A DNA stretch of 64,000 nt from a virus. The notes under the pieces are model-generated. The model was not told the origin of the DNA, searched no databases, and saw only the letters and a list, made by a program, of their open reading frames with translations. The position numbers and the translations under genes were made by a program. This document shows positions 19,473 through 49,770 of this stretch, in pieces; the stretch's first letter is position 1; each line of letters begins with the position of its first letter. The stretch is taken from IMG/VR virus record IMGVR_UViG_2751185817_000001. The stretch is one strand, 5' to 3'.

Positions 19473-19979
19473 ATGGCAAGCAAGAAAGAGAAACAGACCG
19501 TAACCGAGGAAGAAAAGGCGTTCGCGGAGCGCGCCGGTCGCGTCATCCTCGAGAAGCTGAAGGCGCTCGACGAGGTTTACTCGGTTGAAGGCATGCATAG
19601 TCGCTCGGTCATGAAGATCGAGAATGGAAAGTCCGTCGGCTATCGCACCAAGGCGCTGCAGCCGGAGAGCGACCACCTGATCAACGACTTCTTTGTCGGC
19701 GCCAAGGGGCAGCTCGTCTTCAAGGCGTATCCCGCCGACAGCACCGAATACGAATGGGCTGATGTCGACGAAGCCTCGATGGACAAGGTTTTCCCCCTGG
19801 TCGGCGCGTCCCTGGCAGATGCCCTCGATATTAAGGAATGCGAGGACTTTTCGATGGTCGTGCGCACCGTGAAGGAGCGCCTGGCGCAAGAGGATCTCGA
19901 AGCCGCGGACGCCGCGGCCGAGGAGAAGAAACAGGCCGACAAGGCCTATGAGACCAATCCCAACTTCGGAAGGTTCTGA
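19473..19979 (+). CDS. hypothetical protein ending NPNFGRF
   Basis: GAGG RBS; follows operator at 19442. Confidence 0.75.
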   Translation: MASKKEKQTVTEEEKAFAERAGRVILEKLKALDEVYSVEGMHSRSVMKIENGKSVGYRTKALQPESDHLINDFFVGAKGQLVFKAYPADSTEYEWADVDEASMDKVFPLVGASLADALDIKECEDFSMVVRTVKERLAQEDLEAADAAAEEKKQADKAYETNPNFGRF

Positions 19980-19980
19980 A

Positions 19981-20565
19981 ATGAAGATCAAGATCGCTGG
20001 CCTCGATGGCTCGCTGCGAAACTTTGGCATCGCAAAGATGCTCTACGATCTCGACACCGGCACGCTCGAGGTCGACGACTTTCTCCTGATCCAGACGGAG
20101 AAAGAGCAGACCAAGAAGATGCGCGCGTCCTCTGACACCTATGAGCGTGCCAAGAAGCTCGCAGAGGAAGCCAATGAGTTCACCAAGGATTGCGTCGTTA
20201 CATTCGCCGAAGTTCCGTTCGGTGGGAAGTCCTACGACGCCGTGCTCGGCTTCGGCATTGTCATCGGCATCTACGCCTCGCTCAGTGTGCGGCCTGAAGA
20301 GGTCGCGCCGGCACAGACGAAGCTCGCTGCTGTCGGCACGCGCACCGCGTCCAAGGAAGAAATGATCCATTGGGCCTTCAACCTCTACCCGAACGCGCCG
20401 TGGCTGCTGCATCAGAAGAACGGCAAGGGCTACAAGAAGGGCGATCCGACGAACGCCAATGAGCACCTGGCCGACGGCTGCGGCGTCTGCCACGCCGGTA
20501 TCAAGCTTCCGAGCTTCAAGCAGGCAGTCCAGCTTCTCAAGGCGAGCCAGAAGCTCGCGGCATAA
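19981..20565 (+). CDS. RuvC-like Holliday junction resolvase
   Basis: IAGLDGSLRNFG, FAE, ASKEEM, EHLADG acidic catalytic pattern. Confidence 0.75.
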   Translation: MKIKIAGLDGSLRNFGIAKMLYDLDTGTLEVDDFLLIQTEKEQTKKMRASSDTYERAKKLAEEANEFTKDCVVTFAEVPFGGKSYDAVLGFGIVIGIYASLSVRPEEVAPAQTKLAAVGTRTASKEEMIHWAFNLYPNAPWLLHQKNGKGYKKGDPTNANEHLADGCGVCHAGIKLPSFKQAVQLLKASQKLAA

Positions 20566-20588
20566 ACGGCGCAAAATTCAAGCCTATG

Positions 20589-20608
20589 CAGTCAATCAAT
20601 ATTGATTT
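20589..20608 (+). promoter_or_regulatory. operator-like motif upstream of nrdJ
   Basis: cagtcaatcaatattgattt. Confidence 0.7.
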
Positions 20609-20642
20609 AGCATAGGCACCCTTTCGAAATCAGGAGTAAATT

Positions 20643-22982
20643 ATGATTCAGCACGCCGTTGCGAAGGAATACTTCGCCGGAATGGGTCAGGCTGTCGCCG
20701 ATCGCACCATCAACCGCAAAATCACCAATCCGGACGGCACGACACGCGTCGAAACCTGGGCTGACGTTTCCCGCCGTGTCGCCATGGGTAACGCGCTGCT
20801 GATGCCCGGCGCCTACGAGAGCTTCCACAACGACGGTCACACCAATGACGAGTGGGCTGCCAACCCGCCTGCCTTCGCGGTCGAGTTCGACCGGATGCAT
20901 CACCACCTGAAGCAGGCCTCGCTCCTGATGTCCGGTCGGCACCTGCAGCACGGCGACGAAACCCAGCCGACCCGCAACCAGGAAGTCTTTACCAACTGCT
21001 CGACCGCAGCCGCGACCTTCCTGCTGTTCTATCTGCTCCTCAACGGCTCTGGCGTCGGCCGCGCCTACGACGACGCGATGATCAAGGCAAACTACAATTT
21101 CATGCCGATCGTCGTTCCGACGATCGACTGGTCGCACCAGGACGTGCAACGCGGCCTTATCTCGGGTTACAAGACGCGCCGCGATGCCGAACACCTCTAT
21201 GCCGGCCGCAAGATCACCGTCTATGAAGTGCCCGACAGCCGCGAAGGCTGGGCAAAAGCGGTCGAAGTCATCGAGCGCATGACGTTCGAAAGACGCCGCG
21301 ACGAAGTTCTGATCCTCGAGTTCTCCGGCGTTCGTCACAACGGCGCCCCGATCAAGGGCATGCAGGGTCGCCCGGCGTCCGGACCTGGTCCGCTTATGTC
21401 GGCGATCGCCAATGTTGCGCTGCTGCGTGACGCAGGTATGGAGCCATGGCGCGCTGCCATGTATGCCGACCACTACTTCGCCGAATGCGTTCTCGTCGGT
21501 GGCGCACGCCGCGCGGCCCGCATGGCGACGAAGCACTGGAAGGACCGGACGATCTTCGGCTTCATCAATCTGAAGCGCGGTGGTTTCCTCTGGTCCTCGA
21601 ACAACTCGGTCACGATCGATGACGAGTTCCGCACCGCCTGTAAGCGGGTCCGCAATCAGCTTGGCGACGGCGATCTGACGAACTCGGTTGAACGTCTGGT
21701 CTTCCTGCGCGCCATCAATGCGATCACCGAGACCGAAGCGCATGCCTGGAAGGTGCTCATGGAGCTCGCCAAGGCATCCTACTTTGACGGCACTGGCGAA
21801 CCGGGCATCATCAATCAGGACAAGCTCACGCAGGTCAACGATGGCGTCGAGGATTACGTCGATGGTCTCTACGCCGGCTCCTCGCGCTTCCAGGTCGATG
21901 CTGAGACCGTGCCGCTGATGGCTGCGCTCGCAAAGGTCGTCATCGGCGTCAAATACACGATGATTACCAACCCCTGCGGCGAGATCACGCTGCTGATGCT
22001 CGGCGCCTACTGCGTCATCGCTGACGTGGTGCCTTTCCACGCGCAGAACGACGATGATGCAGAAGATGCCTTCCGCACGGCTGTCCGCGCCCTCATGCGG
22101 ACGAACACGATGGATTGCCTCTATCGGCGCGAGGTCAATCGCACGAACCGCATCGGCGTCGGTATTACCGGCTTTCACGAGTGGGTCTACAGCCGCTTCA
22201 AGTTCACCTGGCACGATATCGTCGATGAGGCGAAGTCGAAGGAAATGTGGATGATGCTGTCGCGCTTCAAGCGTGCCATCGTCGACGAAGCGGAGCAGTT
22301 CGCGAAGGTGCTCGGCGTTGTCGTCCCGCACACGAACACCACGTTCAAGCCTGCCGGCACGACCTCGAAGCTGTTCGGCCTCACTGAAGGCGCTCACCTG
22401 CCCTCGATGCGCGAGTTCATCCGCTGGGTGCAGTTCCGCAACGACGATCCGCTCGTCGCTGACTACGAGGCTATGGGTTATCCGGTGAAGCGTCTGAAGA
22501 CCTACGAAGGCACGACCGTCGTTGGCTTCCCGACCAAGCCGCGGATTTGCGAGCTCGACGGTGGCGCCTGGGTGGTGACGGCTGCCGAAGCCACGCCGGA
22601 GGAACAGTATGAGTTCCTGCGCCTGCTGGAGAAGTATTGGATCCATGGCGTCGACGCGAACGGCGAGTCCCTGGCTGAAGAAACGGGCAACCAGGTCAGC
22701 TACACGCTGAAATATGACCCGAAGGTTGTTACCTTCGAACACTTCCTGCACACGCTGATCGACGGCCAGTTCTCGATCCGTTGCTGCTCTGTGATGCCGC
22801 AGACCGATACCTCGGCCTATGAGTATCAGCCCGAGCAACCGGTGACGAAGCAGCAGTTCGAAATGATCGCGGCTGCGATCGAGAATGACAACGTGAAGGA
22901 AGACATCGGCTTCGAGCATGTGGATTGCGGCGCCGGCGCCTGCCCGATCGACTTCTCCGAAGGTCAGAAGGAGGCTGCGTAA
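20643..22982 (+). CDS. nrdJ: class II (B12-dependent) ribonucleotide reductase
   Basis: SGRHLQHG, FTNC, GSGVG, GGARRAA, TNPCGEI, IGVGITG, KPAGTTS, C-terminal CGAGACP; no nrdB in window. Confidence 0.85.
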   Translation: MIQHAVAKEYFAGMGQAVADRTINRKITNPDGTTRVETWADVSRRVAMGNALLMPGAYESFHNDGHTNDEWAANPPAFAVEFDRMHHHLKQASLLMSGRHLQHGDETQPTRNQEVFTNCSTAAATFLLFYLLLNGSGVGRAYDDAMIKANYNFMPIVVPTIDWSHQDVQRGLISGYKTRRDAEHLYAGRKITVYEVPDSREGWAKAVEVIERMTFERRRDEVLILEFSGVRHNGAPIKGMQGRPASGPGPLMSAIANVALLRDAGMEPWRAAMYADHYFAECVLVGGARRAARMATKHWKDRTIFGFINLKRGGFLWSSNNSVTIDDEFRTACKRVRNQLGDGDLTNSVERLVFLRAINAITETEAHAWKVLMELAKASYFDGTGEPGIINQDKLTQVNDGVEDYVDGLYAGSSRFQVDAETVPLMAALAKVVIGVKYTMITNPCGEITLLMLGAYCVIADVVPFHAQNDDDAEDAFRTAVRALMRTNTMDCLYRREVNRTNRIGVGITGFHEWVYSRFKFTWHDIVDEAKSKEMWMMLSRFKRAIVDEAEQFAKVLGVVVPHTNTTFKPAGTTSKLFGLTEGAHLPSMREFIRWVQFRNDDPLVADYEAMGYPVKRLKTYEGTTVVGFPTKPRICELDGGAWVVTAAEATPEEQYEFLRLLEKYWIHGVDANGESLAEETGNQVSYTLKYDPKVVTFEHFLHTLIDGQFSIRCCSVMPQTDTSAYEYQPEQPVTKQQFEMIAAAIENDNVKEDIGFEHVDCGAGACPIDFSEGQKEAA

Positions 22983-23200
22983 TGGGCTGGAAGATCGTTA
23001 GCCGCCCTGATTGCAAGTGGTGCACCCGCGCCAAAGCTCACCTGGCCGTCCGTGGCATCGACTTTGAAGAAGAGCACCTCGACACGCTCGAGGCGCAGCT
23101 CGCCTTCAAGGAGAGCACTGGTCACGACACCTTCCCACAGATTTGGGATGGTGATCAGCACGTCGGTGGCTTCTCACAACTGAGGATCCATCTGGCATAG
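22982..23200 (+). CDS. glutaredoxin (NrdH-like)
   Basis: CKWC active site, TFPQIW; adjacent to RNR. Confidence 0.9.
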   Translation: MGWKIVSRPDCKWCTRAKAHLAVRGIDFEEEHLDTLEAQLAFKESTGHDTFPQIWDGDQHVGGFSQLRIHLA

Positions 23201-23245
23201 TGCATAATCTGCATTTTGTCGCTTGAGTCCCATCGCTGCGCTTGC

Positions 23246-23266
23246 TAGTAAGTCATTATTGATTGA
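23246..23266 (+). promoter_or_regulatory. operator-like motif upstream of the RNA gene cluster
   Basis: tagtaagtcattattgattga flanked by GCTGCGCTTG/CAAGCGCAGC inverted repeat. Confidence 0.65.
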
Positions 23267-23384
23267 TCACAGATCAAGCGCAGCAACACAAACAGCGAGG
23301 TGCCGATGAAGAAGTAAGTGGCCGTCGGATTAAGTCCAAATTGATTGACCAAGACGAGCCGGGATCGTCAGAAAATAAGCCCGG

Positions 23385-23469
23385 CCCTTATGCGAACGGA
23401 TCGGATGACAGTTAGAGCGTAATCGCTGCTGAAAGCCGGTTCGCCCCGGTCGATCCGTTCTCATAAGGG
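23385..23469 (+). ncRNA. candidate tRNA-like structured RNA
   Basis: 19-bp stem with one mismatch (23385-403/23451-469) enclosing a T-arm-like GCCGG-TTCGCCC-CGGT and an AGCG-TAAT-CGCT hairpin. Confidence 0.5.
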
Positions 23470-26696: not shown

Positions 26697-26714
26697 TCAG
26701 TAAATATTGATTGA
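26697..26714 (+). promoter_or_regulatory. operator-like motif
   Basis: tcagtaaatattgattga. Confidence 0.7.
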
Positions 26715-26741
26715 GCACTCTTTTTGTTTTAGGAGCTTGGC

Positions 26742-26942
26742 ATGGCAGACAACGAAAAGATCGACATTCACATTGACCACTATGTCGCCCAGCCAGGCGG
26801 CGTTGGTTACTACTACGCGGTCATGCCCTCACCCGAGCTCTTTGGTCCCTTCGACACGCCCGCCGACGCCAAAACGGCCGCTCTTGCAGCAGTCGAGCAA
26901 TCCGTCGCCCAGGCTCTCGCCTCAGCCCTCTTTGGAGAATGA
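26742..26942 (+). CDS. hypothetical protein
   Basis: AGGAG RBS after operator at 26697. Confidence 0.65.
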   Translation: MADNEKIDIHIDHYVAQPGGVGYYYAVMPSPELFGPFDTPADAKTAALAAVEQSVAQALASALFGE

Positions 26943-26943
26943 C

Positions 26944-27402
26944 ATGAGAATTGGATTCAAAGCCCTCCACCCCGACGCAGTTATGCCGAAATACGCCAAC
27001 GACCAGGCTGCCGGCGCCGATCTCGTCGCCAACATCAAGCTGACGCTCAACAACGAGCGTTTCACCGAGTTCACGCTCGATCCCGGCGAGCGCAAGCTGA
27101 TCAAGACTGGCGTTGCGCTCGAGATGCCACCTGGCATCTGGGCTGAGGTCCGCGGTCGCTCTGGTCTCGCCTATAACCAAGGCATCGCCATCCTCGGTGG
27201 CACGATCGACAGCGACTACCGCGGCGACATCGGCGTGATCATGCTCAACACCGGTGACGAGCCGTTTGTCGTCAAGCATGGCGAGCGCATCGCCCAGCTC
27301 GTCGTCGAGACCTATGTCCGCGGGCATTTCGTTGAAAAGGCAGAGCTGCGCGAGACGGCCCGCGGCGAAGGTGGTTTCGGTTCGACCGGGATGGCAGCCT
27401 GA
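26944..27402 (+). CDS. dut: trimeric dUTPase
   Basis: AAGADL, RGRSGLA, GTIDSDYRG, GERIAQL, RGEGGFGSTG. Confidence 0.96.
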   Translation: MRIGFKALHPDAVMPKYANDQAAGADLVANIKLTLNNERFTEFTLDPGERKLIKTGVALEMPPGIWAEVRGRSGLAYNQGIAILGGTIDSDYRGDIGVIMLNTGDEPFVVKHGERIAQLVVETYVRGHFVEKAELRETARGEGGFGSTGMAA

Positions 27403-28116: not shown

Positions 28117-30486
28117 ATGCAGGTATCGCAGATTAAGGAGCTCGACACGCACGCTGTCATCGGCGGTGGCAAAGCTCGATCGTTCTCGATGGCAGACTCC
28201 GCCGAGTTCTTCCAGGTTTTGTCCTCGACCCTCTACCGCGACAAGAAGCGCGCCATGATCCGCGAGGTTATCTGCAATGGCTGGGATGCGCACATCATCA
28301 GCGGCCGCACGGATCAGCCGCTCGAGATTACCCTCAACGATAACGAGATCGTCTTCCGCGATTTCGGTCCTGGCATTCCGGACGAGCTGATCGTTCCGAT
28401 CTATTGCGTCTACGGCGCGTCGACCAAGGTCAAGAGCGAGAAGGAGACGGGCGGTTTCGGCCTCGGCTCCAAGTCACCCTTCGCCTATTCCGACCATTTC
28501 ACTGTCACGAGCTGCCACAACGGCATCAAGAACGTCTACGCGCTGAGCCGAGGTGGTGTGGCGACTGACGGTCGACCCGAGATCCGCACGATCGTCAGCG
28601 TGCCGACGACCGAAACCGGCATTACCGTCACTGTTCCGCTGCACGATAAGGACGACAGAGCCGAGTTCTCGCGCCATATCTCGATTGTCACCTACCAAGG
28701 CGGCATGAAGGTCAAGCTGAACGACACGGCGCTGCGCACGCTCGACTACGATCCCGCGCGCAAGCAGGGCTTCTGCACCGTCGATGACTGGTTCGGCGCG
28801 ATGCACGAAGCACCAGTCTATTTGCTTTACGGCACGGTTCTCTACCCGGTCTCGACGACAGACACGGAAGTCTACAAGGCGGTGCGCGATGCCGGCGAGC
28901 TGATCGGTAAAAATCACAAGCTCGTGCTTGTCGCGCCTCCCAACTCGGTCGGCGTCACGCCCAGCCGCGAGTCCCTCTCGTATACGGACATGACCACCGA
29001 CACGATCCTGCGCCTCTTGCGCCGGGCTCACAAATCGATCCAGGCGGCTTTGCCGGCTGCCGGCAAGCGTGTGTTCGCTGAAGCCACAAAAGACTTCACC
29101 CTCGATCACGCACGCAGTAGCGACATGCCGAGCCTCTTGGTCAGCTTCGCTGCAGGCATTCGCGTTGAACCGCTCGATATCGCCGGTTTCATCATTCAGA
29201 ACGAACCAAAGCACGTTCGTGACCGGGTGAAGCTCAACTACTATTACGACGGGTTGATCAAGAACAGCCGCGACCTGCGGGCACCGCTGCGGAAGGCGCG
29301 CTGGCTTGGTCAAAAGATCGATAGCACCATCCAGCGCTATGATTTCAGCCGCTTTATCAAGCTGGCGATGAAGCTGAATCTCCTTGACGGCGCGATGATC
29401 TACGATGACGGCGAGGACTATTTCGGCAGCACGCGGCTGAAGAGCATTCGTGCCGGCATTAAGAGTTGCGGCGATATTGACCGTTGCATTTTCATTGCGC
29501 CCAATAAGCGCGAGCTTACCTCGATGATCGTCGCGCACAAAGAGGATCCGACCGAACGCACCGAAAAGCTCTACCTCGGTTTCGTCGTTGGAAAGAGGCC
29601 GTCAGAGGCATTCCTTGAGCGCATCGATGCCCTCTCCGAAAAGTTCAGGTTCTACACAGACGAATACGATTTCGCCTTCGAGAAGCCGAAGCTCGTTCGT
29701 GCCAAAAAGCCGACCGAGACGTTCCACAATCTCGACGACTACATGGACGATCGCAGCGTGGTCGAGGCTAAGCTCGAGTCGGCGCGATACTTCATGCGCG
29801 CCTATATCCATCACGGCACGATGAGAATCGGCATCGATGAGCCGTTCCGCTACAGGCTCGCCAAGCTGTTTCCGGGTATCGCGGTCGTCACGACGAAGGA
29901 TCAAGAGGCAAAGCTGCGAAAAGCGGGCGCAATCAACGTCTTCGAGGAGATCAACAGGCGTCTGAGTAAGCTGACCAAGAACCGGGAAGTTCAATATGGC
30001 TTGATGTTGCAAGACCATGCGTTCGTCGAGGGCTGGGAAAATTACTACGCTAATGAGTGTGGCGAAGTCGCCGTCAAGCTCGCAAATAAAGACCCGGATA
30101 TCGCCAAACTGATCTTCCCGGATCGCGTGAAGCTCGGCGAGACCTGGGAAGAGACCAAACGGCTCATCAGCGTCGCTCGGAACTTCCCGGTCAACGCACA
30201 GGAGTTGCCAATTGAAGTTCGCTGCGCCGATCCGATCAGCCTGATCCTGGAGAATGCACAGAAGACCTTCGGGCACCTGATCGTCAAATACGTCCACATT
30301 GAGGAAAGGCTCGGCTACCTCTCGATGCTCGTTAACTCCAATTGGGTCAACGGGAGCCTCTCCGTCAGCGCTGAACGGAAAGAGCGTTTGCTTGGCGTCA
30401 TCCGCTATTTGCAGCGCTGCGATAGTAAATCAAAATTGACTTCAGACAATACCAACGACGCCATCGCCCAGAAGGAGGCAGCATGA
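28117..30486 (+). CDS. rIIA-like protein (N-terminal GHKL ATPase)
   Basis: LSSTLYRDKKRAMIREVICNGWDAH, FRDFGPGI, YGASTK, GGFGLGSKSPFAYSD. Confidence 0.85.
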   Translation: MQVSQIKELDTHAVIGGGKARSFSMADSAEFFQVLSSTLYRDKKRAMIREVICNGWDAHIISGRTDQPLEITLNDNEIVFRDFGPGIPDELIVPIYCVYGASTKVKSEKETGGFGLGSKSPFAYSDHFTVTSCHNGIKNVYALSRGGVATDGRPEIRTIVSVPTTETGITVTVPLHDKDDRAEFSRHISIVTYQGGMKVKLNDTALRTLDYDPARKQGFCTVDDWFGAMHEAPVYLLYGTVLYPVSTTDTEVYKAVRDAGELIGKNHKLVLVAPPNSVGVTPSRESLSYTDMTTDTILRLLRRAHKSIQAALPAAGKRVFAEATKDFTLDHARSSDMPSLLVSFAAGIRVEPLDIAGFIIQNEPKHVRDRVKLNYYYDGLIKNSRDLRAPLRKARWLGQKIDSTIQRYDFSRFIKLAMKLNLLDGAMIYDDGEDYFGSTRLKSIRAGIKSCGDIDRCIFIAPNKRELTSMIVAHKEDPTERTEKLYLGFVVGKRPSEAFLERIDALSEKFRFYTDEYDFAFEKPKLVRAKKPTETFHNLDDYMDDRSVVEAKLESARYFMRAYIHHGTMRIGIDEPFRYRLAKLFPGIAVVTTKDQEAKLRKAGAINVFEEINRRLSKLTKNREVQYGLMLQDHAFVEGWENYYANECGEVAVKLANKDPDIAKLIFPDRVKLGETWEETKRLISVARNFPVNAQELPIEVRCADPISLILENAQKTFGHLIVKYVHIEERLGYLSMLVNSNWVNGSLSVSAERKERLLGVIRYLQRCDSKSKLTSDNTNDAIAQKEAA

Positions 30487-33643: not shown

Positions 33644-34208
33644 GTTCGACAAGGATGCCTGGATTCTAGAGGCGATCGCCTGCCGATACATCATTCCGCG
33701 TGAAGATGGCACGGTCTGGCGCCGCAAGTGGATCTCGAAGGATCTGAAGTCGATGAGCCGCGAGGTTCATCAGATCAAGCAGCGAACACACAAGGCTGCG
33801 GGCCGGGTCTATTTCAATTTGACCTTCAAGGGGCTCACGAAATCGGTCCTCGTCAATCGCGTGATCGCCCTCGCCTTCCTGCCCAACCCGCTCAATCTGC
33901 CGCAGGTCAACCACATCGACGGCGACAAGAGCCACAACTACCTCAAGCAGCCGACGCCGGAGCTGATCGCCAAGTGGGGTGAATATCAGCTCGAATGGTC
34001 GACAGGTCGCGATAACGAGAAGCACGCGCACGCCAACGGTCTGAAGACTGGCCGTGGCTCGCAGAACTCGAACGCCAAGCTGACAGCGCCCCAGGTCCAG
34101 GAGATCCGCGCGTCCTCGGCGAGTCCCACGGCGCTAGCGAAGGAATACGGCGTCGCTCGATCTACGATCATTAACATCAAGGAAGGCAAGACATGGATAC
34201 ACGTCTGA
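33636..34208 (+). CDS. HNH endonuclease with C-terminal HTH
   Basis: VNRVIALAFLPNP..LPQVNHIDGDKSHN, LEWST..DN..HA, NAKLT...EIR...LAKEYGVARSTI. Confidence 0.85.
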   Translation: MAEFDKDAWILEAIACRYIIPREDGTVWRRKWISKDLKSMSREVHQIKQRTHKAAGRVYFNLTFKGLTKSVLVNRVIALAFLPNPLNLPQVNHIDGDKSHNYLKQPTPELIAKWGEYQLEWSTGRDNEKHAHANGLKTGRGSQNSNAKLTAPQVQEIRASSASPTALAKEYGVARSTIINIKEGKTWIHV

Positions 34209-34684
34209 AACCAAAGAGCGGACAATATCTGCTTCTTCATATGAACGTTCTCGCCCAGGCAGGAACCGTCGATGAGAGCGGCTTCAAATTCAGCGTCATC
34301 AATGGCGGGTGGAGCGGCCGCTATACGTTCGCGACCAACTCTATCTTCGTCGATGGCATCAAGGAGACCCGCGATTGCGAGATCCTCTGCGTTGATCAGC
34401 CGCCTCCGGACGTAGTGCGCGATGGTTATCACGCAATGATCCCTTGGATGCGTATCCGCGCTGGTATCGCCGATGAGCGCGACCTCCGCATGTTCGGCGG
34501 GAAAGTTCCGGAGCCGGAGTTCACCTTCACGATGACCTGCACCGAGCTTCACACCGCGACCTACACGGTCAAGGCGGCTTCGCGCGAAGAGGCGATGAAG
34601 AAGTGGGAGCAGCTCGACTGGTCTGCCGCTACCGATCGCACGCTGCAGGACAGCTCTGACATGGCACTTGAGGAGGCCGCATAA
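34193..34684 (+). CDS. hypothetical protein
   Basis: ORF in operon; coupled to next gene. Confidence 0.65.
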   Translation: MDTRLKPKSGQYLLLHMNVLAQAGTVDESGFKFSVINGGWSGRYTFATNSIFVDGIKETRDCEILCVDQPPPDVVRDGYHAMIPWMRIRAGIADERDLRMFGGKVPEPEFTFTMTCTELHTATYTVKAASREEAMKKWEQLDWSAATDRTLQDSSDMALEEAA

Positions 34685-35241
34685 TGGACCCTATTGAAGC
34701 AGGTCTCGACATCGAGACGACCGGCCTCGAATACGGCGATCACCGCATCATCGAAATCTACATCGGGCTCTATCGCGAGGATAAGCTCCTCAAGGAGCTC
34801 AATCAGCGCATCGACCCGCAGCGCTCGATCGCAAAAGAGGCGCAGGACGTCCACAAGATCTCATCCGCGGATCTCGTCGGTATGCCGATCTGGAACACGG
34901 TTGCTCCCGTCGTTCACGCATTCCTCGCCAAGGCTGACGTTCACGTCGCGCACAATTCGGGCTTCGACCTCCCGTTCATCGCCTATGAGCTGAAGCGCGT
35001 GGGTCTGGTCATGCCGGAGCGCCAGCAGATCGACACGATGCAATACACCTGGGCAACGCCTGACGGTAAGAAGCCGTCGCTGAAGGAGTTGTGCCTGGCG
35101 TGCGACGTTCCCTACGATCCGGCGCTCGCGCACGCCGCGGACTACGACGTCCATCGAATGATGGAGTCCCTCTTCAACGCGCGCCGCTTTGGCGCCGTCG
35201 AGCGTCCGTATATCGCCCCGCCGATGCAGCAAGCTGCCTGA
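34684..35241 (+). CDS. DnaQ-like 3'-5' exonuclease (DEDDh)
   Basis: GLDIETTG, VAHNSGFDLPF, IDTM, AHAADYDV. Confidence 0.92.
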   Translation: MDPIEAGLDIETTGLEYGDHRIIEIYIGLYREDKLLKELNQRIDPQRSIAKEAQDVHKISSADLVGMPIWNTVAPVVHAFLAKADVHVAHNSGFDLPFIAYELKRVGLVMPERQQIDTMQYTWATPDGKKPSLKELCLACDVPYDPALAHAADYDVHRMMESLFNARRFGAVERPYIAPPMQQAA

Positions 35242-35330
35242 TCTATCCTACCGAGTTCCAATCAATGACGCGCTATACAGACAATGCAAGCGAAAACAAC
35301 GATTTAAACGAACTCGCAAAGGAGATAGAC

Positions 35331-36134
35331 ATGAACGCATTGAACAGCACCACTGCTCTTGCCGGCGCAACCGCAAATCAGCTCGACGACCTCCTCGATG
35401 ACCTCGAGCTCGACGGGCTGGACAACGAGGAGATCTCGGACGAGGTGGAAGAGACCGTCGTTCTCGAAGCCGACGCCGTAGTCGAGGAGCCGGTTGTGAC
35501 GGATGAGGATCTCGAAAACGTCGACATCGACGCTCTTGAGATCAACCTCGACCGTGAGGAAGGCTACGCGAGCCAGGAAAGCGAACTGGACGTCGCAGAG
35601 AAGCCCGCTGACGCGGTTGCAGCAGCAAAGGGCACCTCGACGCCGAAGACGCCACGTGCGGCTTCTGCTCCGCGCGCCCCGCGTGACATGGCATCGCTCG
35701 ACGCGAAGGTCTTCGTTCTCGAAGGCGACGCGTCGACGATGGAAGATGGCGCACTCGAGGCGAACAAGACCGATGTGATGGCCGCAATCCCGTCGCAGAA
35801 GAAGATCGCCGAGAAGTTCGAAAACCTGTTCGCCGCCCTCAACGCCGGCAAGCAGCCCTCGGTCTACGTGACCCAGGCGTTCAAGCTCCTGGACGAGAAG
35901 AAGACCATCACCGGCACGGACATCACCACGATGTTCAAGGCGAGCTACAAGCAGGGCACGGCGCAGTCGCAGTCCGGCCAGATCATGACCCTCTTCGAAG
36001 CCGTCAAGATCGCCACGCGCCAGAAGAACACGCTGGTGCTGAACGATAGCTCGGTCGTCGCCGAGCGTCTGCGTGCGATCTTCGCCGCAGCAGCCAACAC
36101 CTCAACCCAGACCACGACCGCAGCAGCGGCGTAA
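35331..36134 (+). CDS. hypothetical protein; acidic N-terminus, putative winged-helix C-terminus
   Basis: GGAG RBS, ATG 35331; C-terminal ~90 aa resemble the 55558 and 57885 proteins. Confidence 0.7.
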   Translation: MNALNSTTALAGATANQLDDLLDDLELDGLDNEEISDEVEETVVLEADAVVEEPVVTDEDLENVDIDALEINLDREEGYASQESELDVAEKPADAVAAAKGTSTPKTPRAASAPRAPRDMASLDAKVFVLEGDASTMEDGALEANKTDVMAAIPSQKKIAEKFENLFAALNAGKQPSVYVTQAFKLLDEKKTITGTDITTMFKASYKQGTAQSQSGQIMTLFEAVKIATRQKNTLVLNDSSVVAERLRAIFAAAANTSTQTTTAAAA

Positions 36135-36177
36135 GCCTCCCAAGGCGCAGACCAACGGGGATATTGCGTCTCCGTTG

Positions 36178-36196
36178 GTCAATCAATATTGACTGA
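36178..36196 (+). promoter_or_regulatory. operator-like motif
   Basis: gtcaatcaatattgactga after a hairpin. Confidence 0.7.
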
Positions 36197-36233
36197 TTCC
36201 ACGGCGCATCCCATAAGGCGCCAACGAAAGGAC

Positions 36234-36710
36234 ATGGCAATGCCCCAGATGATTAATGGCCGGGAATTTCCGGCAGCCGGCGATGAGCTCGTCTTCCTCA
36301 ACGAGAATGGCTACGACAGCCAGCTCGAGGAGGCGCGCAGGCACTTCGTCAAGGACCAGGTCCTCAAGGTGAAGAATATCGACATTGGCGACTGGTCGAG
36401 CTCGATTGAGTTCGAGGAAAAGCCGGGTCAGCGCTTTAACAGCGTGATGTTCGAACCGCTCGGCGCCGACGTAGCGCCTGAAGTGCAGGAGCCAGCGCGG
36501 CGCGCGTATGAGCTGAGCGACCAGGAGCACTCGATGGTGCTCGCCGCGCTGCGGCTCTGGATCGACGTCGTGAACGACGGTGGCGAATACATCAACGAGA
36601 TGCTCCTGGATATCGCTACCAATGGCGAGGATCACGCTACCAATGGCGAGGATCACGCTCTGATGGATGACAAGGCGATCGACGCCCTCTGCGAGCGCAT
36701 CAATGTCTGA
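36234..36710 (+). CDS. hypothetical protein
   Basis: AAGGA RBS after operator at 36178. Confidence 0.7.
   Translation: MAMPQMINGREFPAAGDELVFLNENGYDSQLEEARRHFVKDQVLKVKNIDIGDWSSSIEFEEKPGQRFNSVMFEPLGADVAPEVQEPARRAYELSDQEHSMVLAALRLWIDVVNDGGEYINEMLLDIATNGEDHATNGEDHALMDDKAIDALCERINV
36614..36659 (+). repeat. perfect 21-bp in-frame tandem duplication (ATNGEDH x2)
   Basis: CGCTACCAATGGCGAGGATCA twice. Confidence 0.9.
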
Positions 36711-36930
36711 CGTCACGAACGCCGACCGCGCAGCCTGGGCCGCGATCGCTCTGGGCGCCTTCAAGGCGAGCCATCAGTGCGATGGCGACGATGTGGCGAA
36801 CATCAAGGATCTGATGACCGATCTGCTGCACCTGGCACGCCGGGAGTTCGGCGTGCGCGATGTTTATCAGCTCGCCCACTCGGCCGCGAACATGAATTTC
36901 TTCGAGCAGACCGAAGATAAGGAGGAATAG
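36703..36930 (+). CDS. hypothetical protein
   Basis: Coupled ORF; DLMTDLLHL segment. Confidence 0.65.
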   Translation: MSDVTNADRAAWAAIALGAFKASHQCDGDDVANIKDLMTDLLHLARREFGVRDVYQLAHSAANMNFFEQTEDKEE

Positions 36931-41441: not shown

Positions 41442-41462
41442 CAGTCAATAAATATTGATTGA
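41442..41462 (+). promoter_or_regulatory. operator-like motif
   Basis: cagtcaataaatattgattga. Confidence 0.7.
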
Positions 41463-41509: not shown

Positions 41510-42004
41510 ATGTCCGACCTCAACAACTTCCAGAAACAAATGCTTTCGTCCGTGGACGCATACATTAGCAAGTTCGGCCACCTGCACTACTCGCTGCCCA
41601 GGCGCCACGGCAAGTCCCGCAGCGCCCAGATAACGACCGCGAACGCGACTTTGAGAGGGGTCTCGGCTGAAAACAGTATTCAGATTCTTCTCGACGACCT
41701 CGGCTGGAGCCCGCCTGTGCCGAGAAAGCCGGCGCTTGGACCAGAGCACGTTTTTGATAACCCGCAGTGGCCGGGCAGCCGCATCGAGGTGTGGCGCCTG
41801 GATAAGACCAAACGAGACCCGCGCCATCCCAATCCGGCTGCCGGCACGATCACGCAGTATGAGATCCGCGACGAGAACGGAAAGCTCGAGACCGTCAGTG
41901 GCCTCAACCTGGCAGTAGCCCGCGCCGAGCACCTGCATGAGCTGGCGATCGCCGAGGCGCAGGAGAAGATGCGCCAGCTCAACCCGAACTTCGGCCGCTT
42001 CTAA
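41510..42004 (+). CDS. hypothetical protein ending NPNFGRF
   Basis: GGAG RBS, ATG 41510, after operator at 41442. Confidence 0.75.
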   Translation: MSDLNNFQKQMLSSVDAYISKFGHLHYSLPRRHGKSRSAQITTANATLRGVSAENSIQILLDDLGWSPPVPRKPALGPEHVFDNPQWPGSRIEVWRLDKTKRDPRHPNPAAGTITQYEIRDENGKLETVSGLNLAVARAEHLHELAIAEAQEKMRQLNPNFGRF

Positions 42005-43019: not shown

Positions 43020-43456
43020 CAAGATGGACCTCGAATAATCAGCACGAGCGCTTCACCCACGATGCCTGGTGGCAGGCCCAGAAGGAGGGGCTCGAGCTCT
43101 CCTATCACGACTGGGTGGTCGCTCAGCTCGACGAATGGACCGGCGACGTCCGGGCGCTGAACGACAAGCTGCGCCGTGGCGAAGCTGAAGGCAAAATTCA
43201 CATCGTCGGTGGTCTGGCACAGGCTGATCACAGCGAGATCGCCGCGGCCGTGGAGCAAGTGTGCACCTATGCGGCCTTCGATCCGAAGGATGACCCCTAT
43301 GGCGAGCACGACTTCGGCGCCTTCACGATCGGCGATCAGAAGTTCATGTGGAAGATCGACTACTACGCTCCCGATATGGAGAGCGGGTCGGAGAATCCGG
43401 CCGATCCCAAGGTCACGCGGCGCGTGCTGACGATCTTCTACGCCGAGGACTACTGA
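43016..43456 (+). CDS. DUF3768-like protein
   Basis: DPYGEHDFGAF..GDQKFMWKIDYY...SENPADPKVTRRVLTI. Confidence 0.8.
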   Translation: MTRWTSNNQHERFTHDAWWQAQKEGLELSYHDWVVAQLDEWTGDVRALNDKLRRGEAEGKIHIVGGLAQADHSEIAAAVEQVCTYAAFDPKDDPYGEHDFGAFTIGDQKFMWKIDYYAPDMESGSENPADPKVTRRVLTIFYAEDY

Positions 43457-43764
43457 TGTTCCAGGAGGCGGTGCTCGAGACCCGAGAGTGCGACCGCTAC
43501 TTCGGCTTCCTGGTTGAGACTCAGGAATACGAATTACCTCGCAGTCTTGACGACCAGTGGGATGAAATATGCGTCGGTCGCGAGTTCCTCTGGCGCGTGA
43601 CCGATCGGATCACCGGTGTTTCTATCGAAGGCCCGATCATGGATGCTCCTTATGAGGACATTCTGCAGGCCTTCGAGGAAACCTGGGAGACTTACGCCCA
43701 GTCTAAACCGGTCGCAGCGCCGCCCAATCCATACGCCGATCATCCCAACTACGGGCGGTTCTGA
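43456..43764 (+). CDS. hypothetical protein ending HPNYGRF
   Basis: TGATG overlap, ATG 43456. Confidence 0.7.
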   Translation: MFQEAVLETRECDRYFGFLVETQEYELPRSLDDQWDEICVGREFLWRVTDRITGVSIEGPIMDAPYEDILQAFEETWETYAQSKPVAAPPNPYADHPNYGRF

Positions 43765-44108: not shown

Positions 44109-44157
44109 CGCAATCCACGATTCACTGTGCGACAGTGAATCAATCAATAATGATTGA
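44109..44157 (+). promoter_or_regulatory. promoter-like motif plus operator
   Basis: cgcaatcc(44109)...tgcgacag(44128); aatcaatcaataatgattga. Confidence 0.65.
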
Positions 44158-44168
44158 GGAGATAGCGA

Positions 44169-45826: not shown

Positions 45827-46218
45827 TCGCGCGCCAGGTTCCGATCGACATGCTCTGCGATCTGCACGCTGCGCTGTCCTCGGGCGGCTCCCGCGGCGAC
45901 ATAAGGAACGCACGTTGGATGCTGACCTGGCGCACGCACGATCGCCGCATAGAGCACAAGGTGCGCGCCGGCGTTCTCACCATTCACAACATAGAGCTGC
46001 GCGCGAAACATCGCGGGCGCGGCTATCTGACCGAGCTACTGCGCCATCTGGACGAGGTGCCGGAGATCGCCGACCGACGCTTCGAGTGGATCTATTTCGA
46101 GCAGGTCAACTTCCGGCTCTCAAATCACCTGCTGCGCGAACTGAATTACCGATCCGAGGCTGGCCTGGTCATTGACTGCTGGCGCCGCGTGACCGGTCAA
46201 CTGGAGATGAAACTGTGA
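45823..46218 (+). CDS. GNAT-fold-like protein
   Basis: GGAGG RBS; IHNIELRAKHRGRGYLTELL acetyl-CoA motif A. Confidence 0.55.
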   Translation: MIARQVPIDMLCDLHAALSSGGSRGDIRNARWMLTWRTHDRRIEHKVRAGVLTIHNIELRAKHRGRGYLTELLRHLDEVPEIADRRFEWIYFEQVNFRLSNHLLRELNYRSEAGLVIDCWRRVTGQLEMKL

Positions 46219-46727
46219 GAGAGCCGGAATACGACGTGGGTCTTGTTACTCTCCTGATCCACAAGGGCCTGTATGCGCTGTTTGCAAGCCGTGTGCTTTC
46301 GAGCCAAGGCAGTATCAGCAAATATGTCGAGGGTGACTGGGAGTTCTACGACTCAGGCGATCTTGACGACATGAGAACGAAGTTCGATCGCCTCACTGCG
46401 CTGGATCAGTTCGGCGTCAACCTTGATACCTTCGATAAGGCATACCCTCACGATCGGTGGGAGGAGATCGACGGTTTCACCGGGCCTATGGAGATCTCCT
46501 ACACGCTTTGGAAAGAGCGCACGCGCTCGATCGATCCACGCGCTTTCACCTCGACCGCATCCAAGGAGGGCGAAGAGATCCATTGGCGGATCGTCGACCA
46601 AGGCAAATTGAGCGCAGTTAAAGAGGTTTTCGCTCGCTCCAGGTTTGCGCTCGAGGTGAAGGACGACATTCCGATCCCGGCGCCGATCAACGAATACGCC
46701 GCTCACCCGAACTTCGGGCGGTTCTAA
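46215..46727 (+). CDS. hypothetical protein ending HPNFGRF
   Basis: GTGA overlap; GGAG RBS. Confidence 0.7.
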   Translation: MREPEYDVGLVTLLIHKGLYALFASRVLSSQGSISKYVEGDWEFYDSGDLDDMRTKFDRLTALDQFGVNLDTFDKAYPHDRWEEIDGFTGPMEISYTLWKERTRSIDPRAFTSTASKEGEEIHWRIVDQGKLSAVKEVFARSRFALEVKDDIPIPAPINEYAAHPNFGRF

Positions 46728-46948
46728 TGGATGAGGACGTATTTCGCGATCTCCTCGACGAAGGCTGCACATGCCCAACCGGTCATCCGCCGTGCTCGTT
46801 CTGCACCTCCCTCGATGAGGAAGAATACGAGGCTTACCGATCAGGAGGTGCTCCCGCTGTGCGCGCCATGCGTGACGCCCTGGAGAACGGCGAGCCCTGG
46901 CCTCCCCTTCCAGAATACCACGACCACCCCAACTTCGGGCGGTTCTGA
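46727..46948 (+). CDS. small Cys-rich protein ending HPNFGRF
   Basis: CTCPTGHPPCSFC; TAATG overlap. Confidence 0.7.
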   Translation: MDEDVFRDLLDEGCTCPTGHPPCSFCTSLDEEEYEAYRSGGAPAVRAMRDALENGEPWPPLPEYHDHPNFGRF

Positions 46949-47043
46949 CTATCTATTTCTGCAGTGAAAACAACCGCTTACTGCCTACCGTAAACCGCGA
47001 TTTCGCTTGCTATGATTGATCATAGTCAACGAAAGGAAAGCAC

Positions 47044-47334
47044 ATGAAGACGCTCTCGGCACTGTTAAAGCACTGCGCATCCATCGGCTGCACGTTCGTC
47101 TGCTACTACGACGATCAAGATGACGCCGACTACAAGGGGCCGAGCCAGAAAGAGGCCAAGGAAGCGCTCGAGGCGTGCGACGTCATGAACCTAATTGTCC
47201 TCGATGCCGAGGGTAAGCGCTGGGGCTGGGTGCTGATCATCAACGAGGCTGGACAAGATCCGGAAGAGCAGATGGCCGACTACACGGTTAACGACCCGGT
47301 GAACATCTGGATGGAAGAAGGAAAAGCTGCATGA
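47044..47334 (+). CDS. hypothetical protein
   Basis: AAGGA RBS. Confidence 0.7.
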   Translation: MKTLSALLKHCASIGCTFVCYYDDQDDADYKGPSQKEAKEALEACDVMNLIVLDAEGKRWGWVLIINEAGQDPEEQMADYTVNDPVNIWMEEGKAA

Positions 47335-47528
47335 GCACGGTTAAACTGCGATTTATCAACGAAGACGCCACGCCTAAAGAGGTCGCGTTCGATGTCTCGA
47401 AGGATGGCGTCGCTCCGATCTTGTCCTGGTATGGCGGATATCACTCTGGCGACGATTACGTCGTCTATGTCGATGGCGTCAAAGCTGCGATTGATTTGAA
47501 TGGCGAACTGATCGCGGGGTTGGCATGA
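47331..47528 (+). CDS. hypothetical protein
   Basis: Coupled ORF. Confidence 0.65.
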   Translation: MSTVKLRFINEDATPKEVAFDVSKDGVAPILSWYGGYHSGDDYVVYVDGVKAAIDLNGELIAGLA

Positions 47529-47995
47529 GAACTGACGAGCAGATCGTCATGGAGACGAACGACCTGGCGCGGCATCTGCTGGCCGAGGTGATTGGCACTG
47601 GCTACCAGGTGCCCGAGGATCACAAGTTCTGGAAGGCGGAAGACCCGCGCTCGCAGAAGGCTTGGCAGCACGCCGTCAAGATCATGGAGATGACGACCAA
47701 GACCGAGGTCGAGGACGCGCTCAATAATTTCCTCGCCGAGAATGACAATCCGATCCGGCGCTACCGAGCTCCGACTGGCGCGATGATCATCGGCACTGCC
47801 GAGACCGTGCCGGCCTGCGCCCTCATCAACGGTATCGCGGCCGACGGAACGCCGGACTTTGCTGGCGAAACCAAGTGCTATTGGGACGGTCAGCTCACGA
47901 ACCGCGGAGCAGAAGGCAAGCCGATGTTCCAGTGCGATGATGGACAAGAATGGACCTTCGACCAGCTCACGCCGATCGAGGAGGAAGTCGAATGA
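47525..47995 (+). CDS. hypothetical protein
   Basis: Coupled ORF. Confidence 0.7.
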   Translation: MRTDEQIVMETNDLARHLLAEVIGTGYQVPEDHKFWKAEDPRSQKAWQHAVKIMEMTTKTEVEDALNNFLAENDNPIRRYRAPTGAMIIGTAETVPACALINGIAADGTPDFAGETKCYWDGQLTNRGAEGKPMFQCDDGQEWTFDQLTPIEEEVE

Positions 47996-48390
47996 GGGTG
48001 AAGCTTGAGCTCATTCCTATCACTGATGACGCTGATACCGAGGATATGAAGATCTTCGACTTCACGTCGCCCGAGAACGTCCTGATCGAGGTCGTGATGC
48101 ACGACCCGGCTGGTCCCACGGATAAGTGGACCAACTTCAGCATCGAGTCGACCACGGTCATTTCGGGCAAGGAGGGCGTGACCGGTGCCGCGGAATACGA
48201 GCGCTGCTATGGCGCCGGTCTCGACTACACCATTCAGCAGATCATCGATCCGCCTGGCGAAGGCTGGTTCGTGATCGTCGGTATGACCGGTCACTACAGC
48301 CGCGGTGACGGCTGGATGACTGACGACGACATGGAGTTCTACCACGAGGCCGTGCGGCCGGCGATAGAAGAGGAGATCAAACTCGCATGA
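47992..48390 (+). CDS. acidic hypothetical protein
   Basis: GGAGG RBS, ATG 47992. Confidence 0.7.
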   Translation: MRVKLELIPITDDADTEDMKIFDFTSPENVLIEVVMHDPAGPTDKWTNFSIESTTVISGKEGVTGAAEYERCYGAGLDYTIQQIIDPPGEGWFVIVGMTGHYSRGDGWMTDDDMEFYHEAVRPAIEEEIKLA

Positions 48391-48680
48391 ACCTGAAATT
48401 CGAAACCACCCAGCGCGGCTTTGCCGTCGCCACCTTTACCGATCGCTACGGCGAGGAGTGCAGTCTTCAGGCATCATCCCTCGCTACCGAGGCTGCGATC
48501 TGGTTCGGGATCGACAATCCGAAGGTGCAGGTCTGCGTTCCTGGTGAGGGTTGGAAGGACGTCCCGGTGCCGCATGGTTCGGTAATCTCGAGTCGAATGC
48601 ATCTGACCCAGGATCAGGTGAAGGCGCTGTTGCCGGCGCTCACCTTGTTCGCTGAGACGGGCGATCTTCCCAGTGAGTAA
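48387..48680 (+). CDS. conserved phage hypothetical protein
   Basis: TQRGF...FTDRYGEECSLQASSLATEAAIWFG...RMHLTQDQVKALLP. Confidence 0.7.
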   Translation: MNLKFETTQRGFAVATFTDRYGEECSLQASSLATEAAIWFGIDNPKVQVCVPGEGWKDVPVPHGSVISSRMHLTQDQVKALLPALTLFAETGDLPSE

Positions 48681-48864
48681 ATACGACCCGAATTGCCCAT
48701 CCTGCGAGGGAACCGGCCTGCGTGACTCAGGCGGCACTCATCCGTGGGGAGAACCTATCTCCCTACCCTGCGACTGCGACCAACCCTCGCCGGCCGATCC
48801 CACCGACTTTGCCAGGCGCCTTCTCATCGAGGACGCTGTGATCATGGAGCATCTCAAGAAATGA
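48673..48864 (+). CDS. zinc-finger hypothetical protein
   Basis: CPSCEGTG...PCDC. Confidence 0.6.
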   Translation: MSKYDPNCPSCEGTGLRDSGGTHPWGEPISLPCDCDQPSPADPTDFARRLLIEDAVIMEHLKK

Positions 48865-49055
48865 AACAGGTCGACAACAACCTCGCTGTCTTCCGGCTCG
48901 CCCTGGCGCTAAAGCGCTATGACGACTCCAACCCCGACGTGGGCATGGGGTCGAGCCTTAACCACTTTATCGATCAGGCCGGCAGGGAGCTTCGCCTGGA
49001 GCCGTCGGACTACGACGCCAAGCATGTGTTTGACCTGATGCGGGCGGATCGCTGA
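48861..49055 (+). CDS. hypothetical protein
   Basis: ATGA overlap, ATG 48861. Confidence 0.6.
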   Translation: MKQVDNNLAVFRLALALKRYDDSNPDVGMGSSLNHFIDQAGRELRLEPSDYDAKHVFDLMRADR

Positions 49056-49300
49056 TGGGCGTTTGGCGATATTGCGGGTGCGGCCAGGGCACCTCCTTCC
49101 CCGACGCGGAGGAGCATATCCAGGGATTTCAGAGCTGCGCCAACTGCGGCAAAGAGGTGCCCGTGCATGAGGACGAACGGCGACGGTTCTTCCTCGAAAT
49201 GCATGAGCGCCTCGTCGAGGTCGAGCGCCAGATGAAACTCTTGGTCGAGATCACCAAGAAAGTGGCGCGGAAAACCTACCCCAAGATCGGTTCGACCTGA
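49055..49300 (+). CDS. zinc-ribbon hypothetical protein
   Basis: CGCG...CANCG. Confidence 0.65.
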   Translation: MGVWRYCGCGQGTSFPDAEEHIQGFQSCANCGKEVPVHEDERRRFFLEMHERLVEVERQMKLLVEITKKVARKTYPKIGST

Positions 49301-49770
49301 TGAGCAAGCCACTCGATCAGGTGACAGACGAGGATCTCGCCCGCAACGGTCTGGCTGACTTCTCGATCAATCCGCGGCCAATCATGCCGTGGCGCACAGA
49401 GAACGAACGCTTGACCGGCGTAGCACCGACACCCGAGGAGTGGTCCGCAATCGTCCAGGCTGCCGACAATCCAGTCGAGAAACACGAATTGACGCCTGCC
49501 TGGCCTGCAGATTGGCAATGGCACGAGGGTATGTCGACCAACGGCGATATCTACGTCATGTCGCGCAAAGAGACGGGCGAAGTCGCGATCTGGATTTGGG
49601 CTGCCGGTATGCCGCAGTGGGCGATCCTCGAGCGCTTCGGCTTCATCATGCTCGCCAATCGGCGCCTGAACGAGATCAGAGAAGCTGTTCGCCGCGGTGA
49701 AACCACGATCATAGAGCTTACCCAGGAGCTCCGATCCCGCTTTGACCATCCCAACTACGGAAGATTCTAA
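49300..49770 (+). CDS. hypothetical protein ending HPNYGRF
   Basis: TGATG overlap. Confidence 0.7.
   Translation: MSKPLDQVTDEDLARNGLADFSINPRPIMPWRTENERLTGVAPTPEEWSAIVQAADNPVEKHELTPAWPADWQWHEGMSTNGDIYVMSRKETGEVAIWIWAAGMPQWAILERFGFIMLANRRLNEIREAVRRGETTIIELTQELRSRFDHPNYGRF

Follow-up and report, generated by a model that had tools for sequence, protein, structure and literature searches.

What is read from a heptapeptide that ends six otherwise unrelated proteins of a single virus? The stretch of DNA analysed here (the window) is a 64-kb stretch of the IMG/VR virus record IMGVR_UViG_2751185817_000001; it is from a Rhizobium-type phage-plasmid, and six of its genes end in [HN]-P-N-[FY]-G-R-F directly before the stop codon. 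We call this C-terminal peptide the tag, and the proteins that carry it its clients. On balance, we consider it probable that the tail is a short linear C-terminal docking motif for one shared partner at the replication-recombination machinery. A first-pass annotation, made from the letters of the window, had called the tag undescribed; the literature that we searched, with motif strings and through the genome papers of these phages, likewise held no description of it.

Six proteins with unrelated bodies end in one peptide

A six-frame scan of the 64-kb window found six copies of the motif, all six on the + strand and all six right before a stop codon, with no internal copy in any of the six frames; the minimal core G-R-F-stop was confined to the same six gene ends. 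All six open reading frames (ORFs) translate with the tails that had been listed for them, and the claim that the motif is always the last seven residues held throughout. The tagged genes of the window are:

19473..19979, + strand: client 1, 168 residues, family 1, between sbcC and a RuvC-like gene; ends YETNPNFGRF (tail NPNFGRF at 19956-19976, + strand)
41510..42004, + strand: client 2, 164 residues, family 3, basic; ends RQLNPNFGRF (tail NPNFGRF); alternative start at 41459
43456..43764, + strand: client 3, 102 residues, family 5, acidic; a Pro-rich linker precedes HPNYGRF; ends YADHPNYGRF; alternative start at 43348
46215..46727, + strand: client 4, 170 residues, family 2; a Pro-rich linker precedes HPNFGRF; ends YAAHPNFGRF
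46727..46948, + strand: client 5, 73 residues, family 6, Cys-rich N-terminus; ends YHDHPNFGRF (tail HPNFGRF)
49300..49770, + strand: client 6, 156 residues, family 9; ends RFDHPNYGRF (tail HPNYGRF)

The alternative upstream starts of clients 2 and 3 leave the tails unaffected, and the stop codon of client 4 overlaps the start of the client 5 gene.

The codons for the Gly-Arg pair vary among the six copies (GGA AGG, GGC CGC, GGG CGG three times, and GGA AGA), those for Pro, Asn, and His also differ, and the stop is TGA or TAA. Likeness at the DNA level is limited to 21 coding bases, which are degenerate at third positions, and the flanks (39 bases upstream and 30 bases downstream) are random by DNA alignment. 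The varied codons and random flanking DNA indicate that the peptide is conserved and not a DNA repeat, as the first-pass annotation had argued; an origin of the tag as a DNA repeat or cassette is therefore rejected. Paralogy of the six proteins is rejected as well, because the bodies fall into six separate BLAST families once the tails are removed, in agreement with the earlier view that they are unrelated over their length; they span 73 to 170 residues and isoelectric points of 4.2 to 9.3. Pfam and PHROG scans of the six proteins gave no match, and ESM Atlas look-ups of tagged bodies were uninformative.

An AlphaFold model of client 1, with a predicted local distance difference test (pLDDT) score of 85.7, has an alpha/beta core followed by a 36-residue helix at residues 126-161, and the seven tag residues form a low-confidence flexible tip beyond this long helix. 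In the model, such a projecting flexible tip is the geometry expected of a docking peptide. Structure comparison found no known structural relative of client 1, which has an orphan fold.

Tails outlast bodies in the nearest relatives

The nearest sequenced relatives of the window are the Rhizobium phages RHph_N1_10 and RHEph10 (about 115 kb each), which show about 78% DNA identity to it in the accessory region and a DnaE that is 85-86% identical. Both encode RepC, ParA/ParB, and a full virion module, together with a replication-recombination set comprising DnaB, primase, two ligases, CobT/CobS, DnaE, epsilon, a gp32-type SSB, RecA, SbcCD, a RuvC-like resolvase, and UvsW. Eight genes of RHph_N1_10 are tagged, among them orthologues of all six window genes; the two further genes, in the region upstream of the window and between primase and a ligase, encode a WGR-domain protein and its neighbour, with the tails NANFGRF and HNNFGRF. 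Look-ups of the primase region on the replicon of the window itself returned no record.

Conservation in relatives, on which the first-pass annotation had staked its reading, was thus found: across orthologues overall, tails mostly keep six or seven of their seven residues, as against 17-60% identity in the bodies. In the alignment of client 1 (family 1), which has orthologues in all RHEph10-like genomes, P163, G166, R167, and F168 are invariant. Body identity and tail residues kept were 17-36% and 6-7/7 for client 2, 40-41% and 7/7 for client 3, 22-35% and 5-7/7 for client 4, and 35-53% and 4-6/7 for client 5. The orthologue of client 6 (RHph_N1_10 112868-113110) shares the first ~12 residues and keeps the tail as HPHYGRF; judged from this alignment, the tag appears to have survived remodelling of the body (156 versus 80 residues).

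A search of C-termini in relatives, which the first-pass annotation had proposed, showed [FY]-G-R-F-stop four to seven times in each of five complete IMG/VR relatives, always on the coding strand, as compared to 0-1 for a reversed-pattern control. By our own estimate from amino-acid frequencies, the chance expectation of the tag is ~1e-9 per ORF end, and the six-frame scan and the copy numbers in relatives lead us to reject a chance origin. The 54 distinct tagged ORFs collected fall into ~20 body families by BLAST, and the only recognisable domains among the tagged relatives are WGR and Resolvase.

The location of the tagged genes bears on another proposal of the first-pass annotation, namely that the tail directs its carriers into the virion to be co-injected, in the manner of encapsulin cargo-loading peptides and the T4 capsid-targeting sequence. 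While a short terminal peptide common to unrelated small proteins resembles a packaging signal, and capsid genes are conserved across the group, all eight tagged genes of RHph_N1_10, the relative whose whole annotation was inspected, are in replication, recombination, or accessory regions, outside the annotated terminase-to-tail block; the six window genes are found beside sbcCD-ruvC or among small accessory genes, several tagged genes are in operons with primase, ligase, or sbcCD, and bacterial resolvases (see below) are tagged without any capsid. We consider a virion cargo signal highly improbable.

One tail form in two dialects

A search with the phage DnaE outlined a wider group that shares synteny in the replication and recombination modules and includes Rhizobium phages B1VFA, V1VFA-S, and X66, Stenotrophomonas phage ANB28, Xanthomonas phage JGB6, the Pseudomonas nickie group, and the enterobacterial SSU5/Cyrano phage-plasmids. 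When whole genomes were analysed in frame, each lineage checked in this SSU5-like phage-plasmid group had 2 to 11 tagged proteins, with the general tail form [NH]-P-x-Ar-[GA]-x-Ar-COOH (Ar, aromatic residue). Tails end in F in phages of alphaproteobacteria and in W in those of gammaproteobacteria; examples are ..KAYETNPNFGRF from the window and ..RLLENPIWGTW from an enteric element. By lineage, the tags are:

B1VFA (Rhizobium): 8 tagged genes, ending [FY]-G-[AGTRK]-F
ANB28 (Stenotrophomonas): 11 tagged genes, 8 in one cluster, mostly ..(P-E)-N-Y-G-x-W
JGB6 (Xanthomonas): at least 6 tagged genes, ..P-[ED]-x-Y-G-x-W
nickie (Pseudomonas): 2 strict tails, ..WGTW and ..NPQYGIW, and 3 variants, ..FGGWA, ..IGGWA, and ..WGAFG
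Cyrano (E. coli): 2 tagged genes, ..ISWGSW and ..NPIWGTW
SSU5 (Salmonella): 2 tagged genes, orthologues of the Cyrano pair, ..GWATW and ..PTWATW

SSU5 failed as a tag-less contrast genome, being tagged in the W-A-T-W form. Gene counts for JGB6 are lower bounds, as its record (OQ436456.1) looks frameshift-ridden, e.g., at 33763-36887; its DnaE, CobS, CobT, SbcC, primase, and other genes appear to be split into several short ORFs, and "AAA family ATPase" and "metallophosphoesterase" are examples of mis-annotation there. A separate peculiarity concerns the RecA gene of Escherichia phage Cyrano (55065-57404), which has 779 codons versus ~360-390 in relatives including SSU5, a length that suggests an intein or other insertion.

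IMG/VR also holds many enteric elements with N-P-[ILV]-W-G-[ST]-W on families of 247, 232, and ~305 residues, uncultured contigs (110-117 kb) that have 2-6 tags apiece, and one lineage with tails ending Ar-G-S-F. In the Rhizobium, Pseudomonas, and enteric lineages, two gene positions are tagged, one after the primase and the other between sbcC and ruvC; BLAST across these lineages found no similarity between the bodies of these clients.

The dialects also speak to whether the tail needs a reader. An intrinsic role, be it DNA/RNA or membrane contact or a nascent-peptide or termination signal, would suit the Arg and aromatic residues of the rhizobial dialect and the fact that some clients are DNA-related (WGR, resolvase). 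However, the Arg position varies (A/G/T/K in B1VFA and D/E/G/T/V in W-type dialects), seven residues are too short for membrane binding, and stop codons and downstream context vary, and we give a tail that acts without a reader very little credence.

The tag beyond the phage-plasmid group

In four bacterial genomes with one tagged gene, P-x-[FY]-G-R-F-stop occurs nowhere beyond that gene, and a looser pattern gave 9 matches versus ~10 in the control across 401 alphaproteobacterial genomes, with a known recombinase as the sole real ORF end. On these two scans, host housekeeping proteins do not use the tag. Among the 2.9 million contigs of IMG/VR, 40 real matches belong to contigs of the group or to SSU5-type element fragments, and matches elsewhere are limited to two rhizobial prophages (L005 and L008) and one unplaced 4.8-kb fragment (L279). 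In lambda-tailed rhizobial prophages, a single tagged accessory protein is encoded 3' of the tail genes. A serine recombinase clade on a Cereibacter plasmid and in Sinorhizobium/Rhizobiales islands provides outlier resolvases, including these tagged Resolvase-domain recombinases:

L042:5016-5810, Cereibacter plasmid
L042:8001-8780, Cereibacter plasmid
L041:8001-8750, Sinorhizobium island

These three resolvases are 31-34% identical, have the tails ..HPNFGRF, ..NPNFGRF, and ..PLYGAF, and adjoin defence-type genes (encoding BrxR, a Cas3-like helicase, PIN/Phd, AAA_21, and a DprA-like protein). The Sinorhizobium island also encodes a small ORF that is 50% identical to the window ORF 51886-52350. 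A Halothiobacillaceae cNMP-binding (cyclic nucleotide monophosphate-binding) protein ending NPNFGRF was set aside as probably a chance match.

The tags on resolvases and prophage proteins favour either a reader in uninfected cells or frequent encounters with such phage-plasmids. They are central to a reading in which the tail mimics a host ligand and docks on a conserved host protein (e.g., the beta clamp, DnaB, SSB partners, or RNA polymerase) that is needed by phage-plasmids and plasmid resolvases, the F and W dialects tracking the alpha- and gammaproteobacterial versions of this hub. That the diverged resolvases all keep the tail, that unrelated rhizobial prophages each have one tagged accessory protein, and that the last tag residue follows the host class would all be expected on this account; in addition, no phage clamp was found although the phage encodes its own DnaE and epsilon. 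The same account sits poorly with the absence of the tag from host housekeeping proteins in the genomes scanned, with its near absence from unrelated phages of the same hosts, and with a tail that matches neither the clamp-binding QL[SD]LF nor the acidic SSB tip. We regard docking on a host hub as possible but doubtful.

A probable docking motif and its candidate readers

The terminal position, the aromatic spacing around Gly, the Pro lead-in, and the flexible tip fit a docking motif, as do the many unrelated bodies, a tail conservation far above that of the bodies, and the lineage-wide dialects. In the mechanism proposed, the flexible peptide [NH]-P-x-aromatic-G-x-aromatic-COOH would dock into one pocket on a single partner, engaging it through a pair of aromatic side chains spaced by three residues, a turn centred on Gly, and the free C-terminal carboxylate, and otherwise unrelated proteins would gather via the tag at the same place. 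Clients would include products of conserved genes in the primase and sbcCD-ruvC operons as well as lineage-specific small accessory proteins; because the conserved clients belong to these operons, the hub is placed at replication and recombination, and the meeting place would most likely be the replication-recombination machinery of the phage-plasmid. The first-pass annotation had proposed an address code that recruits diverse phage effectors to one hub. A common docking or address function is still the best reading, with the hub itself a conjecture, and the term "diverse phage effectors" suits the accessory proteins but not the conserved primase and sbcCD-ruvC operon genes that are also tagged.

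Several observations weigh against the docking motif. The post-primase and post-sbcC genes of ANB28 and JGB6 are untagged. The post-primase and post-SbcC proteins of nickie (46773-47546, 66459-67154, and 67145-68029) end in WGAFG, FGGWA, and IGGWA, that is, in the motif followed by a single small residue; this weakens a model in which the last aromatic must bear the free carboxylate, although the two strict nickie tails, both on small proteins, would suit it. The resolvase tags argue for a reader in uninfected cells and the clade restriction for a phage reader, two lines that do not combine into one simple picture, and the folds of family 1 and of the phrog_2500 protein (described below) give no clue to a reader. 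We infer the existence of one reader, its identity, and its place of action, and can put forward candidates for it.

Phage-encoded and host-encoded readers appear about equally likely, and the clade restriction and lineage dialects favour the former. Plausible phage-encoded readers are the vWA domain of CobT, SbcD, DnaB, or an orphan such as phrog_2500; the UvsY-like phrog_2058 protein and the gp32-type SSB are further candidates. The genes concerned, in the window and in a relative (G004), are:

2-511, + strand: C-terminal end of CobT, part of the vWA domain
621-1853, + strand: CobS, MoxR-type AAA+
6718-7266, + strand: UvsY-like clade-restricted gene, phrog_2058
7712-8641, + strand: gp32-type SSB, context gene
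13835-14926, + strand: sbcD, with homology to RHph_N1_10 genes and all group members
16011-18104, + strand: sbcC, in the same operon as sbcD, which includes client 1
G004 L130:12398-13696, - strand: CobS, orthologue of window gene 621-1853
G004 L125:8638-9378, - strand: conserved phrog_2500 gene, ~240 residues, directly upstream of DnaB; its counterpart on the replicon of the window (P0013) is outside the window

The orphan HslV-like peptidase, which the first-pass annotation had named as a possible hub, is rejected as the common reader: an HslV homologue was found in B1VFA and none in ANB28, JGB6, nickie, Cyrano, or SSU5, and HslV, like the sigma factor and rIIA/B, is limited to Rhizobium lineages, whereas the tag spans the whole group. 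A hidden sliding clamp is rejected: the annotations of RHph_N1_10 and Cyrano include none, the conserved unknowns showed neither clamp nor clamp-loader domains in Pfam and PHROG scans, and the gp45-sized phrog_2500 protein is all-helical in its model. Of 50,697 phage records, exactly 29 encode a phrog_2500 member, and all 29 belong to this phage-plasmid group, so that the family is distributed as the tag is; phrog_2058 and phrog_5235 show a comparable restriction, and phyletic profiling thus leaves several clade-restricted unknowns and no single candidate. The all-helical model of phrog_2500 (pLDDT 92), with invariant Trp, Tyr, and Arg residues, had no match in the PDB and represents an orphan fold; the protein may be a helicase loader or hub.

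The CobS/CobT gene pair was found in every tag-bearing lineage checked, where it adjoins the polymerase gene. The vWA domain of CobT spans residues 598-821, and CobS belongs to the MoxR-type ATPases (AAA_5/CbbQ_C); co-occurrence with the tag makes the pair, another hub suggested in the first-pass annotation, a possible candidate reader. The N-terminus of the phage CobS has a weak match to ROS/MucR zinc fingers (E = 8e-5, just below the Pfam cutoff), which suggests a possible DNA tether for the CobS/CobT motor.

The same pair figures in a reading of the tail as a degron or remodelling tag, read by host ClpXP, ClpAP, or Lon or by the phage CobS/CobT MoxR-vWA pair. The metal of the vWA MIDAS (metal-ion-dependent adhesion site) could ligate the free carboxylate, and the tagged set would be degraded or remodelled on schedule. 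This would accord with a strictly terminal tag, with the ubiquity, gene position, and domains of CobS/CobT, including its weak ROS/MucR-like N-terminus, and with a second terminal signature in the same genomes (the Ala-Ala ends treated below), which points to C-terminal codes in use. Phage MoxR-(peptidase)vWA pairs have been proposed as chaperone-processing machines, and the sole published idea that we found for them is that of a virion-assembly chaperone (PMC7824862). However, two 2026 preprints on CobSTN assembly and structure describe no terminal-peptide capture. Conserved replication and recombination clients would also be odd targets for destruction. Moreover, CobS/CobT-like pairs are present in many phages without the tag. 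Overall, a degron or remodelling tag seems unlikely.

A narrower version of the docking motif would make it a private address code of SSU5/RHEph10-type phage-plasmids, with an unannotated clade-specific hub at a replication-recombination factory, for which the phrog_2500 protein next to DnaB or a DNA-tethered CobS/CobT motor could serve as examples. On this view, the tagged resolvases and prophage accessory proteins of rhizobia would act as decoys or hijackers, plugging into the hub of a phage-plasmid that invades or shares the cell. We hold this version to be distinctly unlikely.

SSU5-type phage-plasmids are widespread in Enterobacteriaceae and plant-associated bacteria, and some records of the group come from carbapenem-resistant Klebsiella. 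One peptide on up to eleven proteins per genome offers an experimental handle on how replication and recombination are organised in them; the tag predicts which orphan genes share one pathway, and a tagged peptide could be used to fish out the hub. The split into F and W dialects, like the tagging of resolvases within defence-type islands, suggests co-evolution or molecular mimicry.

Ala-Ala ends in the same genomes

Ends in -AA are found on many large core proteins of the Rhizobium-phage lineages, among them UvsW, ligase, the UvsY-like protein, the 5'-3' exonuclease, RecA, SbcC, RuvC, and epsilon. Of the 54 called genes of the window with 150 residues or more, 12 (22%) have such an end; the share is 2.4% in a Sinorhizobium sample of 400 kb and 0-6% in the gammaproteobacterial relatives, where the orthologues lack -AA. 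The ends take the forms ..QNAA, ..LAAA, ..AIAA, ..EVAA, ..KLAA, ..KEAA, ..QQAA, and ..RKAA, and the -AA genes of the window are:

6718-7266, + strand
8671-9750, + strand
10540-11643, + strand
16011-18104, + strand
19948-20565, + strand
20643-22982, + strand
26707-27402, + strand
28117-30486, + strand
34193-34684, + strand
34684-35241, + strand
35091-36134, + strand
47044-47334, + strand
59765-60223, + strand
61390-62034, - strand
63384-63983, - strand

From their frequency, the -AA ends look like a second, independent C-terminal signature. Both ssrA and CtrA carry Ala-Ala ends, and by analogy the -AA end may be an ssrA- or CtrA-like ClpXP-type end.

Relation to known C-terminal tails

In T4 and RB69, the C-terminal tails of the gp43 polymerase, gp33, and gp55 dock on the gp45 clamp. 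As in these phages, several unrelated proteins of the group studied here have one short C-terminal aromatic peptide; in T4/RB69, the tails are read by a single phage hub at the replication/transcription machinery. The two cases differ in that no sliding clamp or clamp loader was found in this group, in that the peptide has a different sequence, and in that the clients are more numerous here (up to 11), many of them small accessory proteins. A second parallel is provided by the bacterial SSB tip ..DDDIPF and by the acidic tails of T7 gp2.5 and gp4 that end in Phe, where a flexible C-terminus presents a last aromatic residue and a free carboxylate to a pocket and one code serves many interactions. 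There, one hub carries the tail and many partners read it, whereas here many proteins carry the tail; unlike the SSB tip, the tails described here are neutral or basic, have no acidic run followed by I-P-F, and are found on non-SSB proteins, while the gp32-type SSB of the window phage ends in a separate acidic tail, ..DDVLADLDSI. Beta-clamp motifs (QL[SD]LF and QLxLxL) and the PIP-box are likewise short and often C-terminal, and recruit a variety of replication, repair, and mobile-element proteins to a single ring, but the tag does not match QL[SD]LF or QLxLxL and host clamp clients are untagged.

A more distant likeness concerns Nbs1, whose N-F-K-x-F-x-K motif docks on the Mre11 dimer. Nbs1 is an accessory protein of an Mre11/Rad50-type nuclease with the same N-aromatic-x-x-aromatic spacing near its C-terminus, and one conserved tagged client is encoded right after sbcCD; unlike the internal, Lys-rich motif of Nbs1, the tag is strictly terminal and common to many proteins unrelated to sbcCD. 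MoxR AAA+/vWA pairs include CobS-CobT, NorQ-NorD, and CbbQ-CbbO, and the vWA domain of factor B binds the C-terminal carboxylate of C3b. A vWA MIDAS can thus ligate a client carboxylate, and CobS/CobT is universal in the tag-bearing group; in contrast to known vWA capture, CobST has no described terminal-peptide client, and its link with the tag is one of co-occurrence. The ssrA/ClpX degron differs in its non-polar, ..LAA-like end, as the tag ends in an aromatic residue.

The tag fails defining features of each known tail family tested (no clamp, not acidic, different consensus). Several proteins sharing a C-terminal tail for one hub is a known principle, exemplified by the T4 clamp, T7, the SSB C-terminus, clamp motifs, and the PIP-box; what is new is the joining of the rhizobial and enteric tails as F and W dialects of a single code used across the clade.

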